Source: Escherichia phage phiX174. From it: 5,386 bases of DNA. The stretch lies in the sequence record EF380029.1, one strand, 5' to 3'. Below are positions 1-5,386 of this stretch, in pieces. A program made the position numbers and the translations under genes. The first letter of the stretch is position 1; every line of letters begins with the position of its first letter. The notes beneath the pieces were generated by a model. It made no database searches, had not been told where the DNA came from, and worked only from the letters and a program-made list of their open reading frames with translations.

Positions 1-51
1 GAGTTTTATCGCTTCCATGACGCAGAAGTTAACACTTTCGGATATTTCTGA
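1..51 (+). CDS. B: Internal scaffolding protein B, C-terminal segment; continues from 5075..5386 across the junction, stop TGA 49-51
   Basis: Reading GAG TTT TAT CGC TTC CAT GAC GCA GAA GTT AAC ACT TTC GGA TAT TTC TGA gives [16 protein letters not shown], the known B C-terminus; the stop overlaps the K start (TGATG, 49-53). Confidence 0.9.
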
Positions 52-136
52 TGAGTCGAAAAATTATCTTGATAAAGCAGGAATTACTACTGCTTGTTTA
101 CGAATTAAATCGAAGTGGACTGCTGGCGGAAAATGA
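1..136 (+). CDS. A: Replication initiation protein A, C-terminal segment; the ORF enters from 3981..5386 across the circular junction (codon 5385-5386+1) and stops at TGA 134-136
   Basis: Frame continuous with the open frame running from ATG 3981 to the window end; translation matches the phiX174 A C-terminus (...[31 protein letters not shown]); stop overlaps the C start as ATGA (133-136). Confidence 0.9.
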
Positions 137-221
137 GAAAATTCGACCTATCCTTGCGCAGCTCGAGAAGCTCTTACTTTGCGACCTTTCGCCATCAACT
201 AACGATTCTGTCAAAAACTGA
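51..221 (+). CDS. K: Protein K (small accessory protein, 56 aa), overlapping the end of A and the start of C
   Basis: ATG at 51, stop TGA 219-221; hand translation [56 protein letters not shown] matches phiX174 K. Missing from the ORF track, probably because it is below the length cutoff. Confidence 0.85.
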
Positions 222-369
222 CGCGTTGGATGAGGAGAAGTGGCTTAATATGCTTGGCACGTTCGTCAAGGACTGGTTTAGATATGAGTCACATTTTGTT
301 CATGGTAGAGATTCTCTTGTTGACATTTTAAAAGAGCGTGGATTATTATCTGAGTCCGATGTTGTTTAA
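133..369 (+). CDS. C: Protein C (DNA maturation/packaging switch), 78 aa in this copy; truncated relative to the 86-aa reference by an in-frame TAA at 367-369
   Basis: ATG at 133 inside the track ORF 115..369 (which starts at an upstream GTG); translation [78 protein letters not shown] matches phiX174 C up to residue 76. Confidence 0.85.
320..349 (+). promoter_or_regulatory. Promoter for the D-E-J-F-G-H transcript, inside gene C: -35 TTGACA (320-325), 18-nt spacer, -10 TATTAT (344-349)
   Basis: Consensus -35 hexamer and a near-consensus -10 at appropriate spacing, at the position of the known phiX174 D promoter (transcript start near 358). Confidence 0.6.
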
Positions 370-389
370 CCATTAATAGGTAAGAAATC

Positions 390-848
390 ATGAGTCAAGT
401 TATTGAACAATCCGTACGTTTCCAGACTGCTTTGGCCTCTATTAAGCTCATTCAGGTTTCTGCCGTTTTGGATTTAACCGAAGATGATTTCGATTTTCTG
501 ACGAGTAACAAAGTTTGGATTGCTACTGACCGCTCTCGTGCTCGTCGCTGCGTTGAGGCTTGCGTTTATGGTACGCTGGACTTTGTGGGATACCCTCGCT
601 TTCCTGCTCCTGTTGAGTTTATTGCTGCCGTCATTGCTTATTATGTTCATCCCGTCAACATTCAAACGGCCTGTCTCATCATGGAAGGCGCTGAATTTAC
701 GGAAAACATTATTAATGGCGTCGAGCGTCCGGTTAAAGCCGCTGAATTGTTCGCGTTTACCTTGCGTGTACGCGCAGGAAACATTGACGTTCTTACTGAT
801 GCAGAAGAAAACGTGCGTCAAAAATTACGTGCAGAAGGAGTGATGTAA
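390..848 (+). CDS. D: External scaffolding protein D (152 aa)
   Basis: Track ORF 390..848; translation MSQVIEQSVRFQTALASIKLIQVSAVLDL...RAEGVM matches phiX174 D apart from a few substitutions (T5I, A23V, T132I versus my recollection); stop TAA 846-848 overlaps the J start (TAATG). Confidence 0.95.
   Translation: MSQVIEQSVRFQTALASIKLIQVSAVLDLTEDDFDFLTSNKVWIATDRSRARRCVEACVYGTLDFVGYPRFPAPVEFIAAVIAYYVHPVNIQTACLIMEGAEFTENIINGVERPVKAAELFAFTLRVRAGNIDVLTDAEENVRQKLRAEGVM
568..843 (+). CDS. E: Lysis protein E (91 aa, MraY inhibitor), fully embedded in D in the +1 frame
   Basis: ATG at 568 (internal Met of the TTG-initiated track ORF 520..843) preceded by GAGG at 555-558; translation MVRWTLWDTLAFLLLLSLLLPSLLIMFIPSTFKRPVSSWKALNLRKTLLMASSVRLKPLNCSRLPCVYAQETLTFLLMQKKTCVKNYVQKE matches phiX174 E with two C-terminal substitutions. 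Confidence 0.9.
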   Translation: MVRWTLWDTLAFLLLLSLLLPSLLIMFIPSTFKRPVSSWKALNLRKTLLMASSVRLKPLNCSRLPCVYAQETLTFLLMQKKTCVKNYVQKE

Positions 849-964
849 TGTCTAAAGGTAAAAAACGTTCTGGTGCTCGCCCTGGTCGTCCGCAGCCGTT
901 GCGAGGTACTAAAGGCAAGCGTAAAGGCGCTCGTCTTTGGTATGTAGGTGGTCAACAATTTTAA
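848..964 (+). CDS. J: Small basic DNA-binding/packaging protein J (38 aa)
   Basis: ATG 848 with AAGGAG at 835-840; hand translation MSKGKKRSGARPGRPQPLRGTKGKRKGARLWYVGGQQF*, stop TAA 962-964. Too short to appear in the ORF track. Confidence 0.9.
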   Translation: MSKGKKRSGARPGRPQPLRGTKGKRKGARLWYVGGQQF

Positions 965-968
965 TTGC

Positions 969-984
969 AGGGGCTTCGGCCCCT
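969..984 (+). terminator. J-F intergenic hairpin (AGGGGC-TTCG-GCCCCT), the partial terminator / mRNA-stabilising stem after gene J
   Basis: Perfect 6-bp GC-rich stem with a TTCG tetraloop immediately after the J stop; no strong U-tract follows, consistent with partial read-through into F. Confidence 0.6.
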
Positions 985-1000
985 TACTTGAGGATAAATT

Positions 1001-2284
1001 ATGTCTAATATTCAAATTGGCGCCGAGCGTATGCCGCATGACCTTTCCCATCTTGGCTTCCTTGCTGGTCAGATTGGTCGTCTTATTACCATTTCAACTA
1101 CTCCGGTTATCGCTGGCGATTCCTTCGAGATGGACGCCGTTGGCGCTCTTCGTCTTTCTCCATTGCGTCGTGGCCTTGCTATTGACTCTACTGTAGACAT
1201 TTTTACTTTTTATGTCCCTCATCGTCACGTTTATGGTGAACAGTGGATTAAGTTCATGAAGGATGGTGTTAATGCCACTCCTCTCCCGACTGTTAACACT
1301 GCTGGTTATATTGACCATGCCGCTTTTCTTGGCACGATTAACCCTGATACCAATAAAATCCCTAAGCATTTGTTTCAGGGTTATTTGAATATCTATAACA
1401 ACTATTTTAAAGCGCCGTGGATGCCTGGCCGTACTGAGGCTAACCCTAATGAGCTTAATGAAGATGATGCTCGTTATGGTTTCCGTTGCTGCCATCTCAA
1501 AAACATTTGGACTGCTCCGCTTCCTCCTGAGACTGAGCTTTCTCGTCAAATGACGACTTCTACCACATCTATTGACATTATGGGTCTGCAAGCTGCTTAT
1601 GCTAATTTTCATACTGACCAAGAACGTGATTACTTCATGCAGCGTTATCGTGATGTTATTTCTTCATTTGGAGGTAAAACCTCTTATGACGCTGACAACC
1701 GTCCTTTACTTGTCATGCGCTCTAATTTCTGGGCATCTGGCTATGATGTTGATGGAACTGACCAAACGTCGTTAGGCCAGTTTTCTGGTCGTGTTCAACA
1801 GACCTATAAACATTCTGTGCCGCGTTTCTTTGTTCCTGAGCATGGCACTATGTTTACTCTTGCGCTTGTTCGTTTTCCGCCTACTGCGACTAAAGAGATT
1901 CAGTACCTTAACGCTAAAGGTGCTTTGACTTATACCGATATTGCTGGCGACCCTGTTTTGTATGGCAATTTGCCGCCGCGTGAAATTTCTATGAAGGATG
2001 TTTTCCGTTCTGGTGATTCGTCTAAGAAGTTTAAGATTGCTGAGGGTCAGTGGTATCGTTATGCGCCTTCGTATGTTTCTCCTGTTTATCACCTTCTTGA
2101 AGGTTTCCCATTCATTCAGGAACCGCCTTCTGGTGATTTGCAAGAACGCGTACTTATTCGCCACCATGATTATGACCAGTGTTTCCAGTCCGTTCAGTTG
2201 TTGCAGTGGAATAGTCAGGTTAAATTTAATGTGACCGTTTATCGCAATCTGCCGACCACTCGCGATTCAATCATGACTTCGTGA
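1001..2284 (+). CDS. F: Major capsid protein F (427 codons)
   Basis: Track ORF 1001..2284; GAGG at 990-993; translation MSNIQIGAERMPHDLSHLGFLAGQIGRLITISTTPVIAGDSFEMD... matches phiX174 F with about 8 scattered substitutions. Confidence 0.95.
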   Translation: MSNIQIGAERMPHDLSHLGFLAGQIGRLITISTTPVIAGDSFEMDAVGALRLSPLRRGLAIDSTVDIFTFYVPHRHVYGEQWIKFMKDGVNATPLPTVNTAGYIDHAAFLGTINPDTNKIPKHLFQGYLNIYNNYFKAPWMPGRTEANPNELNEDDARYGFRCCHLKNIWTAPLPPETELSRQMTTSTTSIDIMGLQAAYANFHTDQERDYFMQRYRDVISSFGGKTSYDADNRPLLVMRSNFWASGYDVDGTDQTSLGQFSGRVQQTYKHSVPRFFVPEHGTMFTLALVRFPPTATKEIQYLNAKGALTYTDIAGDPVLYGNLPPREISMKDVFRSGDSSKKFKIAEGQWYRYAPSYVSPVYHLLEGFPFIQEPPSGDLQERVLIRHHDYDQCFQSVQLLQWNSQVKFNVTVYRNLPTTRDSIMTS

Positions 2285-2310
2285 TAAAAGATTGAGTGTG
2301 AGGTTATAAC

Positions 2311-2342
2311 GCCGAAGCGGTAAAAATTTTAATTTTTGCCGC
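2311..2342 (+). other. F-G intergenic structured region: candidate PriA (n') primosome assembly site for complementary-strand synthesis, possibly also a post-F terminator
   Basis: GCGGTAAAAATT (2317-2328) pairs with AATTTTTGCCGC (2331-2342) around a TT loop (12 bp, one G-T/U wobble); a small CCG-AAG-CGG stem sits at 2312-2320. The PAS is known to lie in the phiX174 F-G intergenic space. Confidence 0.5.
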
Positions 2343-2394
2343 TGAGGGGTTGACCAAGCGAAGCGCGGTAGGTTTTCTGCTTAGGAGTTTAATC

Positions 2395-2922
2395 ATGTTT
2401 CAGACTTTTATTTCTCGTCATAATTCAAACTTTTTTTCTGATAAGCTGGTTCTCACTTCTGTTACTCCAGCTTCTTCGGCACCTGTTTTACAGACACCTA
2501 AAGTTACATCGTCAACGTTATATTTTGATAGTTTGACGGTTAATGCTGGTAATGGTGGTTTTCTTCATTGCATTCAGATGGATACATCTGTCAACGCCGC
2601 TAATCAGGTTGTTTCTGTTGGTGCTGATATTGCTTTTGATGCCGACCCTAAATTTTTTGCCTGTTTGGTTCGCTTTGAGTCTTCTTCGGTTCCGACTACC
2701 CTCCCGACTGCCTATGATGTTTATCCTTTGGATGGTCGCCATGATGGTGGTTATTATACCGTCAAGGACTGTGTGACTATTGACGTTCTTCCCCGTACGT
2801 CGGGCAATAATGTTTATGTTGGTTTCATGGTTTGGTCTAACTTTACCGCTACTAAATGTCGCGGATTGGTTTCGCTGAATCAGGTTATTAAAGAGATTAT
2901 TTGTCTCCAGCCACTTAAGTGA
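2395..2922 (+). CDS. G: Major spike protein G (175 aa)
   Basis: ATG 2395 (Met 16 of the TTG-initiated track ORF 2350..2922) with AGGAG at 2383-2387; translation [63 protein letters not shown]... matches phiX174 G; stop TGA 2920-2922. Confidence 0.95.
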
Positions 2923-2930
2923 GGTGATTT

Positions 2931-3917
2931 ATGTTTGGTGCTATTGCTGGCGGTATTGCTTCTGCTCTTGCTGGTGGCGCCATGTCTAAATTGTTTGGAG
3001 GTGGTCAAAAAGCCGCCTCCGGTGGTATTCAAGGTGATGTGCTTGCTACCGATAGCAATACTGTAGGCATGGGTGATGCTGGTATTAAATCTGCTATTCA
3101 AGGCTCTAATGTTCCTAACTATGATGAGGTCGCCCCTAATTTTGTTTCTGGTGCTATGGCTAAAGCTGGTAAAGGACATCTTGAAGGTACGTTGCAGGCT
3201 GGCACTTCTGCCGTTTCTGATAAGTTGCTTGATTTGGTTGGACTTGGTGGCAAGTCTGCCGCTGATAAAGGAAAGGATACTCGTGATTATCTTGCTGCTG
3301 CATTTCCTGAGCTTAATGCTTGGGAGCGTGCTGGTGCTAATGCTTCCTCTGCTGGTATGGTTGACGCCGGATTTGAGAATCAAAAAGAGCTTACTAAAAT
3401 GCAACTGGACAATCAGAAAGAGATTGCCGAGATGCAAAATGAGACTCAAAAAGAGATTGCTGGCATTCAGTCGGTGACTTCACGCCAGAATACGAAAGAC
3501 CAGGTATATGCACAAAATGAGATGCTTGCTTATCAACAGAAGGAGTCTACTGCTCGTGTTGCGTCTATTATGGAAAACACCAATCTTTCCAAGCAACAGC
3601 AGGTTTCCGAGATTATGCGCCAAATGCTTACTCAAGCTCAAACGGCTGGTCAGTATTTTACCAATGACCAAATTAAAGAAATGACTCGCAAGGTTAGTGC
3701 TGAGGTTGACTTAGTTCATCAGCAAACGCAGAATCAGCGGTATGGCTCTTCTCATATTGGCGCTACTGCAAAGGATATTTCTAATGTCGTCACTGATGCT
3801 GCTTCTGGTGTGGTTGATATTTTTCATGGTATTGATAAAGCTGTTGCCGATACTTGGAACAATTTCTGGAAAGACGGTAAAGCTGATGGTATTGGCTCTA
3901 ATTTGTCTAGGAAATAA
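2931..3917 (+). CDS. H: Minor spike / DNA pilot protein H (328 aa) with glycine-rich N-terminal hydrophobic segment and C-terminal coiled coil
   Basis: Track ORF 2931..3917; GAGG at 2921-2924; translation [32 protein letters not shown]... matches phiX174 H with about 7 substitutions; stop TAA 3915-3917. Confidence 0.95.
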
Positions 3918-3926
3918 CCGTCAGGA

Positions 3927-3950
3927 TTGACACCCTCCCAATTGTATGTT
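3927..3950 (+). promoter_or_regulatory. Candidate gene A promoter in the H-A intergenic region: TTGACA (3927-3932) and TATGTT (3945-3950)
   Basis: Perfect -35 hexamer just after the H stop, but the spacer to the best -10-like hexamer is only 12 nt, so the exact elements are uncertain. Confidence 0.35.
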
Positions 3951-3955
3951 TTCAT

Positions 3956-3980
3956 GCCTCCAAATCTTGGAGGCTTTTTT
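3956..3980 (+). terminator. Intrinsic terminator after gene H: stem GCCTCCAA / TTGGAGGC with ATC loop, followed by T6; the 3' arm contains the gene A Shine-Dalgarno GGAGG
   Basis: Perfect 8-bp inverted repeat 3956-3963 / 3967-3974 directly followed by TTTTTT (3975-3980), ending one base before the A ATG. Confidence 0.7.
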
Positions 3981-5386
3981 ATGGTTCGTTCTTATTATCC
4001 TTCTGAATGTCACGCTGATTATTTTTACTTTGAGCGTATCGAGGCTCTTAAACCTGCTATTGAGGCTTGTGGCATTTCTACTCTTTCTCAATCCCCAATG
4101 CTTGGCTTCCATAAGCAGATGGATAACCGCATCAAGCTCTTGGAAGAGATTCTGTCTTTTCGTATGCAGGGTGTTGAGTTCGATAATGGTGATATGTATG
4201 TTGACGGCCATAAGGCTGCTTCTGACGTTCGTGATGAGTTTGTATCTGTTACTGAGAAGTTAATGGATGAATTGGCACAATGCTACAATGTGCTCCCCCA
4301 ACTTGATATTAATAACACTATAGACCACTGCCCCGAAGGGGACGAAAAATGGTTTTTAGAGAACGAGAAGACGGTTACGCAGTTTTGCCGCAAGCTGGCT
4401 GCTGAACGCCCTCTTAAGGATATTCGCGATGAGTATAATTACCCCAAAAAGAAAGGTATTAAGGATGAGTGTTCAAGATTGCTGGAGGCTTCCACTATGA
4501 AATCGCGTAGAGGTTTTACTATTCAGCGTTTGATGAATGCAATGCGACAGGCTCATGCTGATGGTTGGTTTATCGTTTTTGATACTCTTACGTTGGCTGA
4601 CGACCGATTAGAGGCGTTTTATGATAATCCCAATGCTTTGCGTGATTATTTTCGTGATATTGGTCGTATGGTTCTTGCTGCCGAGGGTCGCAAGGTTAAT
4701 GATTCACACGCCGACTGCTATCAGTATTTTTGTGTGCCTGAGTATGGTACAGCTAATGGTCGTCTTCATTTCCATGCGGTGCACTTTATGCGGACACTTC
4801 CTACAGGTAGCGTTGACCCTAATTTTGGTCGTCGGGTACGTAATCGCCGCCAGTTAAATAGCTTGCAAAATATGTGGCCTTATGGTTACAGTATGCCCAT
4901 CGCAGTTCGCTATACGCAGGACGCTTTTTCACGTTCTGGTTGGTTGTGGCCTGTTGATGCTAAAGGTGAGCCGCTTAAAGCTACCAGTTATATGGCTGTT
5001 GGTTTCTATGTGGCTAAATACGTTAACAAAAAGTCAGATATGGACCTTGCTGCTAAAGGTCTAGGAGCTAAAGAATGGAACAACTCACTAAAAACCAAGC
5101 TGTCGTTACTTCCCAAGAAGCTGTTCAGAATCAGAATGAGTCGCAACTTCGGGATGAAAATGCTCACAATGACAAATCTGTCCACGGAGTGCTTAATCCA
5201 ACTTACCAAGCTGGGTTACGACGCGACGCCGTTCAACCAGATATTGAAGCAGAACGCAAAAAGAGAGATGAGATTGAGGCTGGGAAAAGTTACTGTAGCC
5301 GACGTTTTGGCGGCGCAACCTGTGACGACAAATCTGCTCAAATTTATGCGCGCTTCGATAAAAATGATTGGCGTATCCAACCTGCA
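3981..5386 (+). CDS. A: Replication initiation protein A (rolling-circle nickase), N-terminal and central segment; continues across the junction to 1..136
   Basis: ATG 3981 with GGAGG at 3969-3973; MVRSYYPSECHADYF... matches phiX174 A. No complete ORF is listed in this frame (0 mod 3) from 3981 to the window end, consistent with an open frame that only terminates after wrapping. Contains the + origin at 4299-4328. Confidence 0.9.
   Translation, partial: MVRSYYPSECHADYFYFERIEALKPAIEACGISTLSQSPMLGFHKQMDNRIKLLEEILSFRMQGVEFDNGDMYVDGHKAASDVRDEFVSVTEKLMDELAQCYNVLPQLDINNTIDHCPEGDEKWFLENEKTVTQFCRKLAAERPLKDIRDEYNYPKKKGIKDECSRLLEASTMKSRRGFTIQRLMNAMRQAHADGWFIVFDTLTLADDRLEAFYDNPNALRDYFRDIGRMVLAAEGRKVNDSHADCYQYFCVPEYGTANGRLHFHAVHFMRTLPTGSVDPNFGRRVRNRRQLNSLQNMWPYGYSMPIAVRYTQDAFSRSGWLWPVDAKGEPLKATSYMAVGFYVAKYVNKKSDMDLAAKGLGAKEWNNSLKTKLSLLPKKLFRIRMSRNFGMKMLTMTNLSTECLIQLTKLGYDATPFNQILKQNAKREMRLRLGKVTVADVLAAQPVTTNLLKFMRASIKMIGVSNL
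4299..4328 (+). other. Viral (+) strand origin of rolling-circle replication; protein A nick site between G4305 and A4306
   Basis: Exact 30-mer CAACTTGATATTAATAACACTATAGACCAC, identical to the phiX174 origin core as I recall it, inside gene A; followed by a small CCCC-GAA-GGGG hairpin at 4331-4341. Confidence 0.85.
4497..5386 (+). CDS. A*: A* protein: in-frame internal translation start within gene A (continues to 1..136)
   Basis: ATG 4497-4499 in the A frame, preceded by GGAGG at 4484-4488 at about 8 nt spacing; this is the established position of the A* start in phiX174. Confidence 0.75.
   Translation, partial: MKSRRGFTIQRLMNAMRQAHADGWFIVFDTLTLADDRLEAFYDNPNALRDYFRDIGRMVLAAEGRKVNDSHADCYQYFCVPEYGTANGRLHFHAVHFMRTLPTGSVDPNFGRRVRNRRQLNSLQNMWPYGYSMPIAVRYTQDAFSRSGWLWPVDAKGEPLKATSYMAVGFYVAKYVNKKSDMDLAAKGLGAKEWNNSLKTKLSLLPKKLFRIRMSRNFGMKMLTMTNLSTECLIQLTKLGYDATPFNQILKQNAKREMRLRLGKVTVADVLAAQPVTTNLLKFMRASIKMIGVSNL
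4863..4891 (+). promoter_or_regulatory. Candidate gene B promoter inside gene A: TTGCAA (4863-4868), 17-nt spacer, TACAGT (4886-4891)
   Basis: Sigma-70-like hexamers with canonical spacing about 185 nt upstream of the B start, in the region where the phiX174 B promoter is reported; assigned by eye only. Confidence 0.3.
5075..5386 (+). CDS. B: Internal scaffolding protein B, N-terminal segment, embedded in gene A in a different frame; continues to 1..51
   Basis: ATG 5075 with AGGAG at 5063-5067; translation MEQLTKNQAVVTSQEAVQNQNESQLRDENAHNDKSVHGVLNPTYQAGLRRDAVQPDIEAERKKRDEIEAGKSYCSRRFGGATCDDKSAQIYARFDKNDWRIQPA... matches phiX174 B (A11V and P23S versus my recollection). Confidence 0.9.
   Translation, partial: MEQLTKNQAVVTSQEAVQNQNESQLRDENAHNDKSVHGVLNPTYQAGLRRDAVQPDIEAERKKRDEIEAGKSYCSRRFGGATCDDKSAQIYARFDKNDWRIQPA

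Follow-up and report, generated by a model that had tools for sequence, protein, structure and literature searches.

Virion-strand C>T excess in a complete phiX174 genome, EF380029, is best explained by hydroxylamine-treated passaging of an experimental line

Treatment with hydroxylamine turns cytosine into N4-hydroxycytosine, a base that pairs with adenine. The closest described system for the genome analyzed here is the mutagenesis experiment on phiX174 conducted by Silander, Tenaillon & Chao 2007 (PLoS Biol 5:e94). In this experiment the ancestor AP100 was obtained from a clone of B. Fane's laboratory after 100 passages at 32 C; its descendants were then carried through 90 transfers with 100 plaques as the bottleneck (line 100c) and through 55 more transfers with a bottleneck of 250. 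Ahead of every plating on the host, a mutT strain, free virions were exposed to hydroxylamine (250 mM, 140 min, 37 C). The reported spectrum was 89% C>T, and the published rate was 0.18 silent C>T per transfer. The ancestor was described as having 1,151 cytosines, with 309, 736 and 106 sites where C>T is silent, missense or creates a stop, respectively; our recount in AP100 gave the same 1,151 cytosines and 312, 733 and 106 sites.

The window (the whole stretch of DNA analyzed, 5386 nt) is, as judged from its proteins and its position among related genomes, the complete phiX174 genome of GenBank record EF380029, the third Ne=250 replicate of this published laboratory line. The isolate name is presumably 250B55, given the neighboring records 250A55 and 250C55. 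A protein look-up produced exact matches for C (ABN49846), D (ABN49847), F (ABN49850) and H (ABN49852), with the D, F and H matches each located on one 5386-nt contig. All four accessions sit between those of EF380028 (ABN49831-41) and EF380030 (ABN49853-63). Each record of the series, whose 24 genomes run from EF380009 to EF380032, has 11 consecutive protein accessions (the first ones are ABN49622 in EF380009, ABN49754 in EF380021, ABN49831 in EF380028 and ABN49853 in EF380030), therefore EF380029 should hold ABN49842-52, and the C, D, F and H proteins would occupy precisely the matched positions. The identification thus combines four exact protein matches, accession arithmetic and phylogeny. 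We consider it nearly certain that the window is this experimental line and that its C>T changes came from hydroxylamine-treated passaging with plaque bottlenecks. None of this is new: the 2007 publication already gave the sequence, the C>T bias and what caused it, and the window holds no new biology. Coordinates of the features are given in Table 1.

Table 1. Features of the phiX174 genome in the window (reference coordinates)
Feature	Position(s)	Strand	Basis or comment
Complete phiX174 genome	1..5386	+	98.8% identical to NC_001422; 99.4% to EF380021, EF380028, EF380030
Nine sites with the window base in wild relatives	833, 1650, 1727, 2731, 2811, 4518 (all three wild genomes); 1460 (S13, NC41); 3139 (NC41, NC1); 2085 (S13)	+	Wild-genome comparison
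C>T after AP100, common to 100C90 (17)	403, 784, 1120, 1150, 1648, 1969, 3002, 3095, 3130, 4329, 4514, 4583, 4696, 4760, 4841, 4913, 5141	+	Site table
C>T after AP100, only with 250A55 and/or 250C55 (8)	874, 1546, 2504, 2787, 2800, 3998, 4490, 4873	+	Site table
C>T after AP100, private to the window (20)	346, 362, 373, 428, 457, 800, 1017, 1435, 2104, 2418, 2859, 3026, 3120, 3475, 3557, 3674, 4172, 4589, 4646, 5106	+	Site table
Non-C>T, mutagenesis phase (7, all missense)	1301 A>G (F T101A), 1428 A>G (F D143G), 1609 G>T (F L203F), 3055 A>G (H N42S), 3178 T>A (H L83H), 3339 G>A (H D137N), 4026 G>T (A D16Y)	+	
Premature TAA, gene C Q79* (367 C>T)	367..369	+	Cuts last 8 residues QPLIGKKS
H codon 64, CCT (Pro) > CAT (His) > TAT (Tyr)	3120..3122	+	Two single-base events

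The window and NC_001422.1 have equal length and a common origin, and were compared position by position. We found 63 substitutions (1.17%) and no indels: 49 C>T (78%), five A>G, four G>A, two G>T and one each of C>G, C>A and T>A, with no T>C. The ratio of C>T to G>A, 49:4, has a binomial p = 7e-12 (the genome contains 1157 C and 1254 G). With the worst effect counted for each substitution in overlapping frames, 32 substitutions are missense, 30 silent and one nonsense. An earlier sequence-only reading had anticipated this picture well: it had put the differences at ~60 (~1%), four fifths of them C>T on the + strand and about four G>A, with about half of all changes missense and missense about as frequent as silent. 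Eight of the C>T positions listed in that reading (346, 362, 367, 403, 457, 784, 800 and 874) are exact, while a ninth, given as 1016, is really 1017. In the alignment the spectrum was neither balanced nor mostly synonymous, and the number of differences was not far lower than the one given in that reading.

Genomes of AP100 (EF380009), 100C90 (EF380021), 250A55 (EF380028) and 250C55 (EF380030) were used to partition the 63 differences by origin into nine reference oddities, two pre-experiment changes and 52 changes of the mutagenesis phase. The nine sites where the window matches wild relatives include three of the four G>A and three of the 49 C>T; by comparison with the wild genomes, these sites are to be assigned to the Sanger reference lineage or to known recurrent adaptive sites, not to mutagenesis. 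C1727T, for instance, is a well-known adaptive change, a reversion to the wild state (PMC3606162). The pre-experiment changes, C Q79* (367) and H P64H (3121), were in AP100 already, and the window has every one of the 11 changes that separate AP100 from the reference. Use of the Sanger reference alone would misassign about one-sixth of the differences (11/63), i.e. the nine reference-lineage sites and the two pre-experiment changes.

Beyond AP100, the window is nested in the 100c > Ne=250 clade: 22 further changes are common to 100C90, 10 more are found only with 250A55 and/or 250C55 and 20 are private, all 20 of them C>T. The window differs from each of the three sisters at 32-33 sites. In the mutagenesis phase 45 of 52 changes (86.5%) are C>T, with one G>A and no T>C (45:1, p = 1e-13). 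The 45 C>T (346..5141) comprise 16 missense, 28 silent and one intergenic change and no nonsense; among the private ones are C A77V, D A23V, E T78M, F T6I, H H64Y, H A182V and B A11V. The seven remaining changes are located in capsid, pilot and replication genes. Seven of seven being missense compares with 73% expected (P = 0.11 taken alone); we take these changes, in F, H and A, as candidates that were probably selected. A>C or T>G transversions, expected from a mutT host, were not found in the window.

The proposed mechanism would explain the single direction of change. Lesions would be limited to the + strand, the only strand inside the virion, and each would become a + strand C>T at the first complementary-strand synthesis, essentially never a G>A or T>C; with only the packaged + strand exposed, cytosine damage is read out as C>T and not as G>A. 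At ~0.5 viable C>T per genome per transfer, plaque bottlenecks would fix silent and mildly deleterious missense changes, and nonsense and strongly deleterious changes would be purged. That the agent is hydroxylamine is known from the published protocol; the sequence alone fits any agent damaging only cytosines of the packaged strand. The proposal of the sequence-only reading, cytosine deamination of packaged single-stranded DNA, was thus right in its + strand logic and differed from the documented agent, hydroxylamine acting on virions, in the chemistry; its conclusion that the genome is a mutagenized, lab-passaged derivative and no wild isolate is borne out by the match to EF380029 and its hydroxylamine and bottleneck experiment.

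The rate agrees with the published one: 29 neutral (silent or intergenic) C>T were observed vs 26.1 expected (0.18 x 145 transfers; Poisson P = 0.31). Selection can be seen as well. Normalized to C>T opportunities, omega for C>T is 0.23 (Fisher p = 1e-6), and none of the 45 C>T fell on the 106 possible nonsense sites (P = 0.013 under neutrality). Missense changes make up 52% in the window vs 20-28% in wild phages, and missense or nonsense changes 33/63 vs 68/237 in the wild control described below (p = 8e-4); a published value for 16 wild isolates is 20% missense. Purifying selection is therefore weakened relative to wild phages and is still present. More missense change than normal purifying selection allows, as had been suggested from the sequence, is thus seen in the missense share, but omega and the lack of nonsense in the mutagenesis phase show that selection was not lost.

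Mutated cytosines were also characterized by context and location. Tests of 5' and 3' neighbors and of TC, CC, GC and CpG contexts detected no bias at neutral mutated cytosines. A context bias at all C sites (p = 0.005) was gone with only silent and intergenic sites considered, and so reflects codon position rather than chemistry. Along the genome the mutated sites were evenly spread (KS p = 0.48-0.62). An apparent cluster at 346-373, with three mutagenesis-phase changes in 28 nt, was rejected, as an equal or denser cluster appeared in 57% of random draws. Predicted + strand pairing at neutral C was 0.65 for mutated and 0.66 for unmutated sites (p = 0.76), a comparison of low power (n = 29) made for DNA whose structure in the capsid may differ.

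Could ordinary propagation without a mutagen, through spontaneous cytosine deamination or a natural bias of ssDNA phages, have produced the same spectrum? As a natural control we used 237 polarized changes on terminal branches of wild phiX174-clade genomes (S13, NC41 and NC1). The strand asymmetry in the window has the sign that deamination predicts (C>T far above G>A), and some asymmetry is indeed natural, since pyrimidine transitions on the + strand of the wild phages are ~3.3 times as frequent as purine transitions. The wild branches, however, have 77 C>T and 72 T>C, vs 45 and 0 in the mutagenesis phase of the window (p = 9e-13 for the C>T share). The natural bias is thus strand-asymmetric yet balanced between C>T and T>C, the mutagenized spectrum is one-directional, and the one-way 45:0 is the mark of mutagenesis. 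From the published spontaneous rate, 1.1e-6 per nucleotide per cell infection, no more than 0.25 silent C>T would be expected at the 312 neutral C sites in 725 generations, against the 29 observed. Given also that the source experiment applied hydroxylamine at every transfer, we regard a purely spontaneous origin as very improbable. The methodological value of the case is that a one-way, single-strand spectrum was correctly read as that of a mutagenized laboratory derivative.

Two further explanations have still smaller probability. The C>T changes might not be heritable, being instead a product of template damage or chemistry (a deaminated template, a phiX spike-in partly converted by bisulfite) or of in-silico alteration. 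Template damage also gives unidirectional C>T, and phiX174 is a common sequencing spike-in of which many near-identical copies have been deposited under unrelated organism names. Random damage or editing would, however, show neither the hierarchical nesting with independently deposited sisters (22 changes with 100C90, 10 more with 250A55 and/or 250C55) nor the selection seen in omega and in the 106 unused nonsense sites; both codon-position placement, which is not random, and sharing with sisters were tested, and the resulting proteins are deposited as GenBank entries. We give such an artefact almost no weight. An APOBEC/AID-type cytidine deaminase that edits the single-stranded genome would account for strand-specific C>T, as these enzymes use ssDNA, but the 5' T or C preference is missing at neutral sites: 4/61 TC sites are mutated vs 25/251 others (p = 0.62), with p = 0.25 for CC and a 5'-neighbor chi-square p = 0.31. 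No strong TC, CC or WRC bias was seen among the mutated cytosines. No APOBEC/AID-type enzyme is known to act on phage DNA in E. coli. With a documented chemical cause at hand, enzymatic editing appears equally negligible, and hydroxylamine treatment of virions is the reading that we keep.

The nonsense codon in gene C noticed in the sequence-only reading is Q79* (CAA>TAA). The stop precedes the start codon of gene D (390) by 23 nt, within the leader of the D message. The change predates mutagenesis: it was acquired on the way to the 'high-fitness' ancestor and was retained in every descendant examined. It is present in AP100 and all descendants fetched, whose records annotate C as 133-369, and absent from wild S13, NC41 and NC1, in which the eight lost residues are almost invariant. 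A BLAST search with AP100 335-400 gave 100% matches in 13 records, all from the EF3800xx series. The cluster of the 78-residue C protein includes 19 contigs, one of them 5513 nt long, so the truncated C may occur outside this series. Truncated C is undiscussed in Silander et al. 2007 and in two papers on phiX174 evolution. A literature search by accession HM753658 found nothing. That Q79* is adaptive rather than merely tolerated seems to us rather unlikely. If it is adaptive, the neighboring 362 C>T (C A77V), a recurrent change seen in four lines, might be a follow-up adjustment; by our estimate about one site with four or more hits would arise by chance. An adaptive Q79* would mean that the DNA-packaging protein C can do without its C-terminus or that D expression is tuned from 367.

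The two-base change CCT to TAT in gene H, noted near 3121-3123, was confirmed as a change of codon 64, with the altered bases at 3120-3121. As 3121 C>A is found in AP100 and all descendants and 3120 C>T in the window only, the codon changed in two events rather than in one double change. In wild S13 H codon 64 is TCT (Ser); the codon is thus variable in nature too.

Among known systems the sister lines 250A55 (EF380028), 250C55 (EF380030) and 100C90 (EF380021) are the closest to the window. They share with it the AP100 ancestry, the protocol, the truncated C, H P64H and 22-32 derived substitutions, and their spectra are as dominated by C>T as that of the window. In the hydroxylamine work on phages S13 and T4 (Tessman 1968), as represented by its citation as ref. 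58 in PMC1845161, free virions were treated in vitro; the modified cytosines were those of the packaged strand of ssDNA phage, and only C>T on the viral strand resulted, as here. Classical use, as far as this source reflects it, consisted of a single treatment and yielded individual mutants, whereas the line in the window passed through 145 successive treatments with bottlenecks, and dozens of changes were therefore fixed in one genome. Unmutagenized phiX174 evolution lines (Wichman, Bull, Brown; PMC2935103, PMC3606162) resemble the window in the phage used, in laboratory passage, in recurrent sites such as 1727 and in the concentration of changes in F, H and A. By the descriptions in these papers, their changes are mostly missense and adaptive and fall into several types, G>T transversions and A/T>G/C transitions among them; unlike the window, they are described without a unidirectional flood of C>T with many silent hitch-hikers. 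Wild S13, NC41 and NC1 (from the Rokyta et al. 2006 set) are like the window in genome organization, length and dominance of pyrimidine transitions on the + strand, but they have a C>T:T>C ratio of 77:72, 20-28% missense changes and a full-length C, in contrast to 45:0, 44-52% missense and a truncated C in the window.

The window is a complete phiX174 genome: aligned to the Sanger reference (NC_001422), it matched over 5386 bases in the same coordinates with 98.8% identity, 63 substitutions and no indels. The substitutions comprised 49 C>T, five A>G, four G>A, two G>T and one each of C>G, C>A and T>A, with no T>C among the 63; given base composition, 49 C>T versus 4 G>A has p = 7e-12. With each change classed by its worst effect over overlapping frames, 32 were missense, 30 silent and one nonsense (in gene C). 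The sequence-only reading proved accurate in its totals (all differences, C>T, G>A and missense); the alignment bore out both its strand-asymmetric C>T excess and its nonsense codon in C. Its positions were mostly exact, with two one-base slips (1016 for 1017 and 3121-3123 for 3120-3122).

Three records were closer to the window than the reference, EF380021 (100C90), EF380028 (250A55) and EF380030 (250C55), each 99.4% identical to it; EF380009-EF380032 are the accessions of Silander, Tenaillon & Chao (PLoS Biol 2007;5:e94). Records in this series have 11 consecutive protein accessions each (order A, A*, B, K, C, D, E, J, F, G, H), starting at ABN49622 for EF380009, ABN49831 for EF380028 and ABN49853 for EF380030; thus, EF380029 should span ABN49842-52. 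Exact protein matches of the window (C, ABN49846; D, ABN49847; F, ABN49850; H, ABN49852) fell at exactly the predicted numbers, which identifies the window, by its proteins, as EF380029. As this accession lies between those of 250A55 and 250C55, the isolate is presumably 250B55. The search also returned near-complete phiX174 genomes under unrelated names, 98.8% identical to the window (matches H18, H19, H20 and H33): Protaetiibacter phage SSC1, Enterobacteria phage ST5386 and a record from Enterobacteriaceae bacterium bta3-1; a 'Mycolicibacterium phage J1' record of 24,953 nt holds a whole phiX174. These look like sequencing spike-in carry-over.

In the 2007 experiment, a high-fitness ancestor, derived from a phiX174 clone of B. 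Fane by 100 passages at 32 C, was taken through 90 transfers with plaque bottlenecks of 3, 10, 30 or 100; the Ne=100 population of highest fitness, 100c, then gave three Ne=250 replicates kept for 55 further transfers (275 generations). Each transfer involved 250 mM hydroxylamine with 1 mM EDTA at 37 C for 140 min, and the plating host after treatment was E. coli mutT (Silander et al. 2007). The suggestion of a mutagenised, lab-passaged derivative was therefore right.

Eleven sites separate the ancestor, AP100 (EF380009), from the reference, and at each of them the window has the AP100 base. Among its 52 later changes, 22 are common to 100C90, 10 more are common only to 250A55 and/or 250C55, and 20 are private, every one of them C>T. 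The 52 comprise 45 C>T (86.5%; 89% of all substitutions in Silander et al. 2007), three A>G, two G>T, one T>A and one G>A, so that C>T stands to G>A as 45:1 (p = 1e-13) and to T>C as 45:0. We counted 1,151 cytosines in AP100, equal to the published figure; C>T there would be silent or intergenic, missense or stop at 312/733/106 sites, in agreement with the published 309/736/106 (Silander et al. 2007). Silent or intergenic C>T changes numbered 29, likewise in agreement with the 26.1 expected from the published silent rate (0.18 per transfer x 145 transfers).

Sites and intervals discussed, in reference coordinates
Position	Change or base	Gene and effect	Occurrence
133-369		gene C as annotated, not 133-393	100C90, 250A55, 250C55
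264	T		100C90 and 250C55 only
362	C>T	C A77V (codon 77 GCT>GTT)	window
367	C>T	C Q79*	AP100 and window; new to laboratory lineage
833, 1650, 1727, 2731, 2811, 4518			AP100/window base in 3/3 of S13, NC41, NC1
1460, 3139			AP100/window base in 2/3
2085			AP100/window base in 1/3
1007	A>C		250A55 and 250C55, not window
1609, 4026	G>T		window, after AP100
1648	T		missing from 250A55 only
3120	C>T	H H64Y	private to window
3121	C>A	H P64H	AP100 and window; new to laboratory lineage
3178	T>A		window, after AP100
3825, 4850			250A55 and 250C55, not window
4329	C>T	A R117C	whole 100c lineage
4490	T		window and 250A55 only

The 11 AP100 differences were polarised with three wild or independent phiX174-clade genomes (S13, NC41 and NC1). 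At nine of them, either the Sanger reference is the aberrant sequence or the site is known to recur; at the six where the reference stands alone against AP100 and these three genomes, the difference reflects the reference lineage, not the query. C1727T is described as a well-known adaptive change and as a reversion to the wild state (PMC3606162). Only the two changes at 367 and 3121 are new to the laboratory lineage. The nonsense codon, being already in AP100, did not arise during the mutagenised bottleneck phase. The apparent two-base change in H (codon 64, CCT>TAT) is real, but it combines two separate events: P64H predates the experiment, and H64Y came later, on the private branch of the window. 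The codon varies in nature too, since S13 encodes Ser there.

Hydroxylamine would modify cytosine in packaged single-stranded DNA, leading to C>T; N4-hydroxycytosine pairs with adenine (reference 58 in Silander et al. 2007). As the agent, it rests on the published protocol and known chemistry and is not provable from sequence; a test for preference of mutated sites for unpaired cytosines gave no signal. The sequence-only reading had the right substrate, cytosine in packaged single-stranded DNA, but took the process to be deamination rather than chemical modification. Spontaneous deamination could draw on the strand asymmetry of natural lineages, where pyrimidine transitions are ∼3.3 times as frequent as purine transitions, but in these lineages the two directions are about equal (77 C>T versus 72 T>C in the wild phiX174-clade control), and a spontaneous rate of 1.1e-6 substitutions per nucleotide per cell infection gives at most 0.25 silent C>T in 725 generations versus 29 observed; this explanation fails. 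The changes are shared with sister genomes in a nested fashion and bear the imprint of selection, which excludes a damage or conversion artefact and artificial editing; APOBEC-like editing is excluded because neutral sites show no preference for any neighbouring base. The sequence, its C>T bias and the hydroxylamine treatment behind it were all published in 2007 and are already known.

The S13 (AF274751) terminal branch is itself skewed (19 C>T versus 4 T>C, 5 G>T; 15/35 missense), unlike the C>T:T>C of NC41 (22:19) and NC1 (28:33); laboratory mutagenesis or damage may also have occurred in the past of the S13 stock used for sequencing. Sites 264, 1007, 1648, 3825, 4490 and 4850 fit no simple tree, and nine changes are in all three Ne=250 lines yet not in 100C90; these patterns may reflect polymorphism already present among the 100c founders, repeated hits at a site or recombination. 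With a mutT host, more A>C and T>G transversions would be expected; the window has neither, its only post-AP100 transversions being the two G>T and one T>A, and 250A55 and 250C55 have a single A>C in common. The annotated viral-strand synthesis origin (4306) is 23 nt upstream of the change at 4329; substitutions cluster around the origin in long-term chemostats (PMC3606162).

Of the points left over, only the retained gene C truncation is at all novel; we found no discussion of it in the source paper or in the phiX174 evolution literature searched. The window's 78-residue C protein with A77V has the same sequence as ABN49659, ABN49670 and ABN49824, which accession arithmetic assigns to EF380012, EF380013 and EF380027. 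Each of these has exactly one mismatch to AP100 within 335-400; EF380031 and EF380032 have none. The change at 362 thus appears to have originated in four of the lines, a recurrence that is only suggestive, as by rough estimate about one four-hit site is expected by chance.

Normalised to C>T opportunities, omega for the mutagenesis-phase C>T changes was 0.23 (Fisher p = 1e-6). Gene-by-gene values, from very small counts, were 0.06 for F and 0.15 for A, the two lowest; G and H had about 0.25, whereas C, D and E, which are small or overlapping, came close to 1. None of the 106 C>T nonsense opportunities was taken in this phase (P = 0.013 under neutrality); only 1/560 substitutions was nonsense in Silander et al. 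(2007). All seven non-C>T changes of the phase are missense, in F, H or A, which suggests selection, although not significantly on its own (P = 0.11). The window's C>T missense:silent ratio, 16:29, is below the 141:162 of Silander et al. (2007), a difference that is not significant (p = 0.20). Before such normalisation, the raw missense share of 52% in the window agrees with the earlier remark that about half the changes are missense, and is well above both the 28% among the 237 polarised changes of the wild control (p = 8e-4) and a published 20% in 16 wild isolates (about 77% being expected under neutrality).
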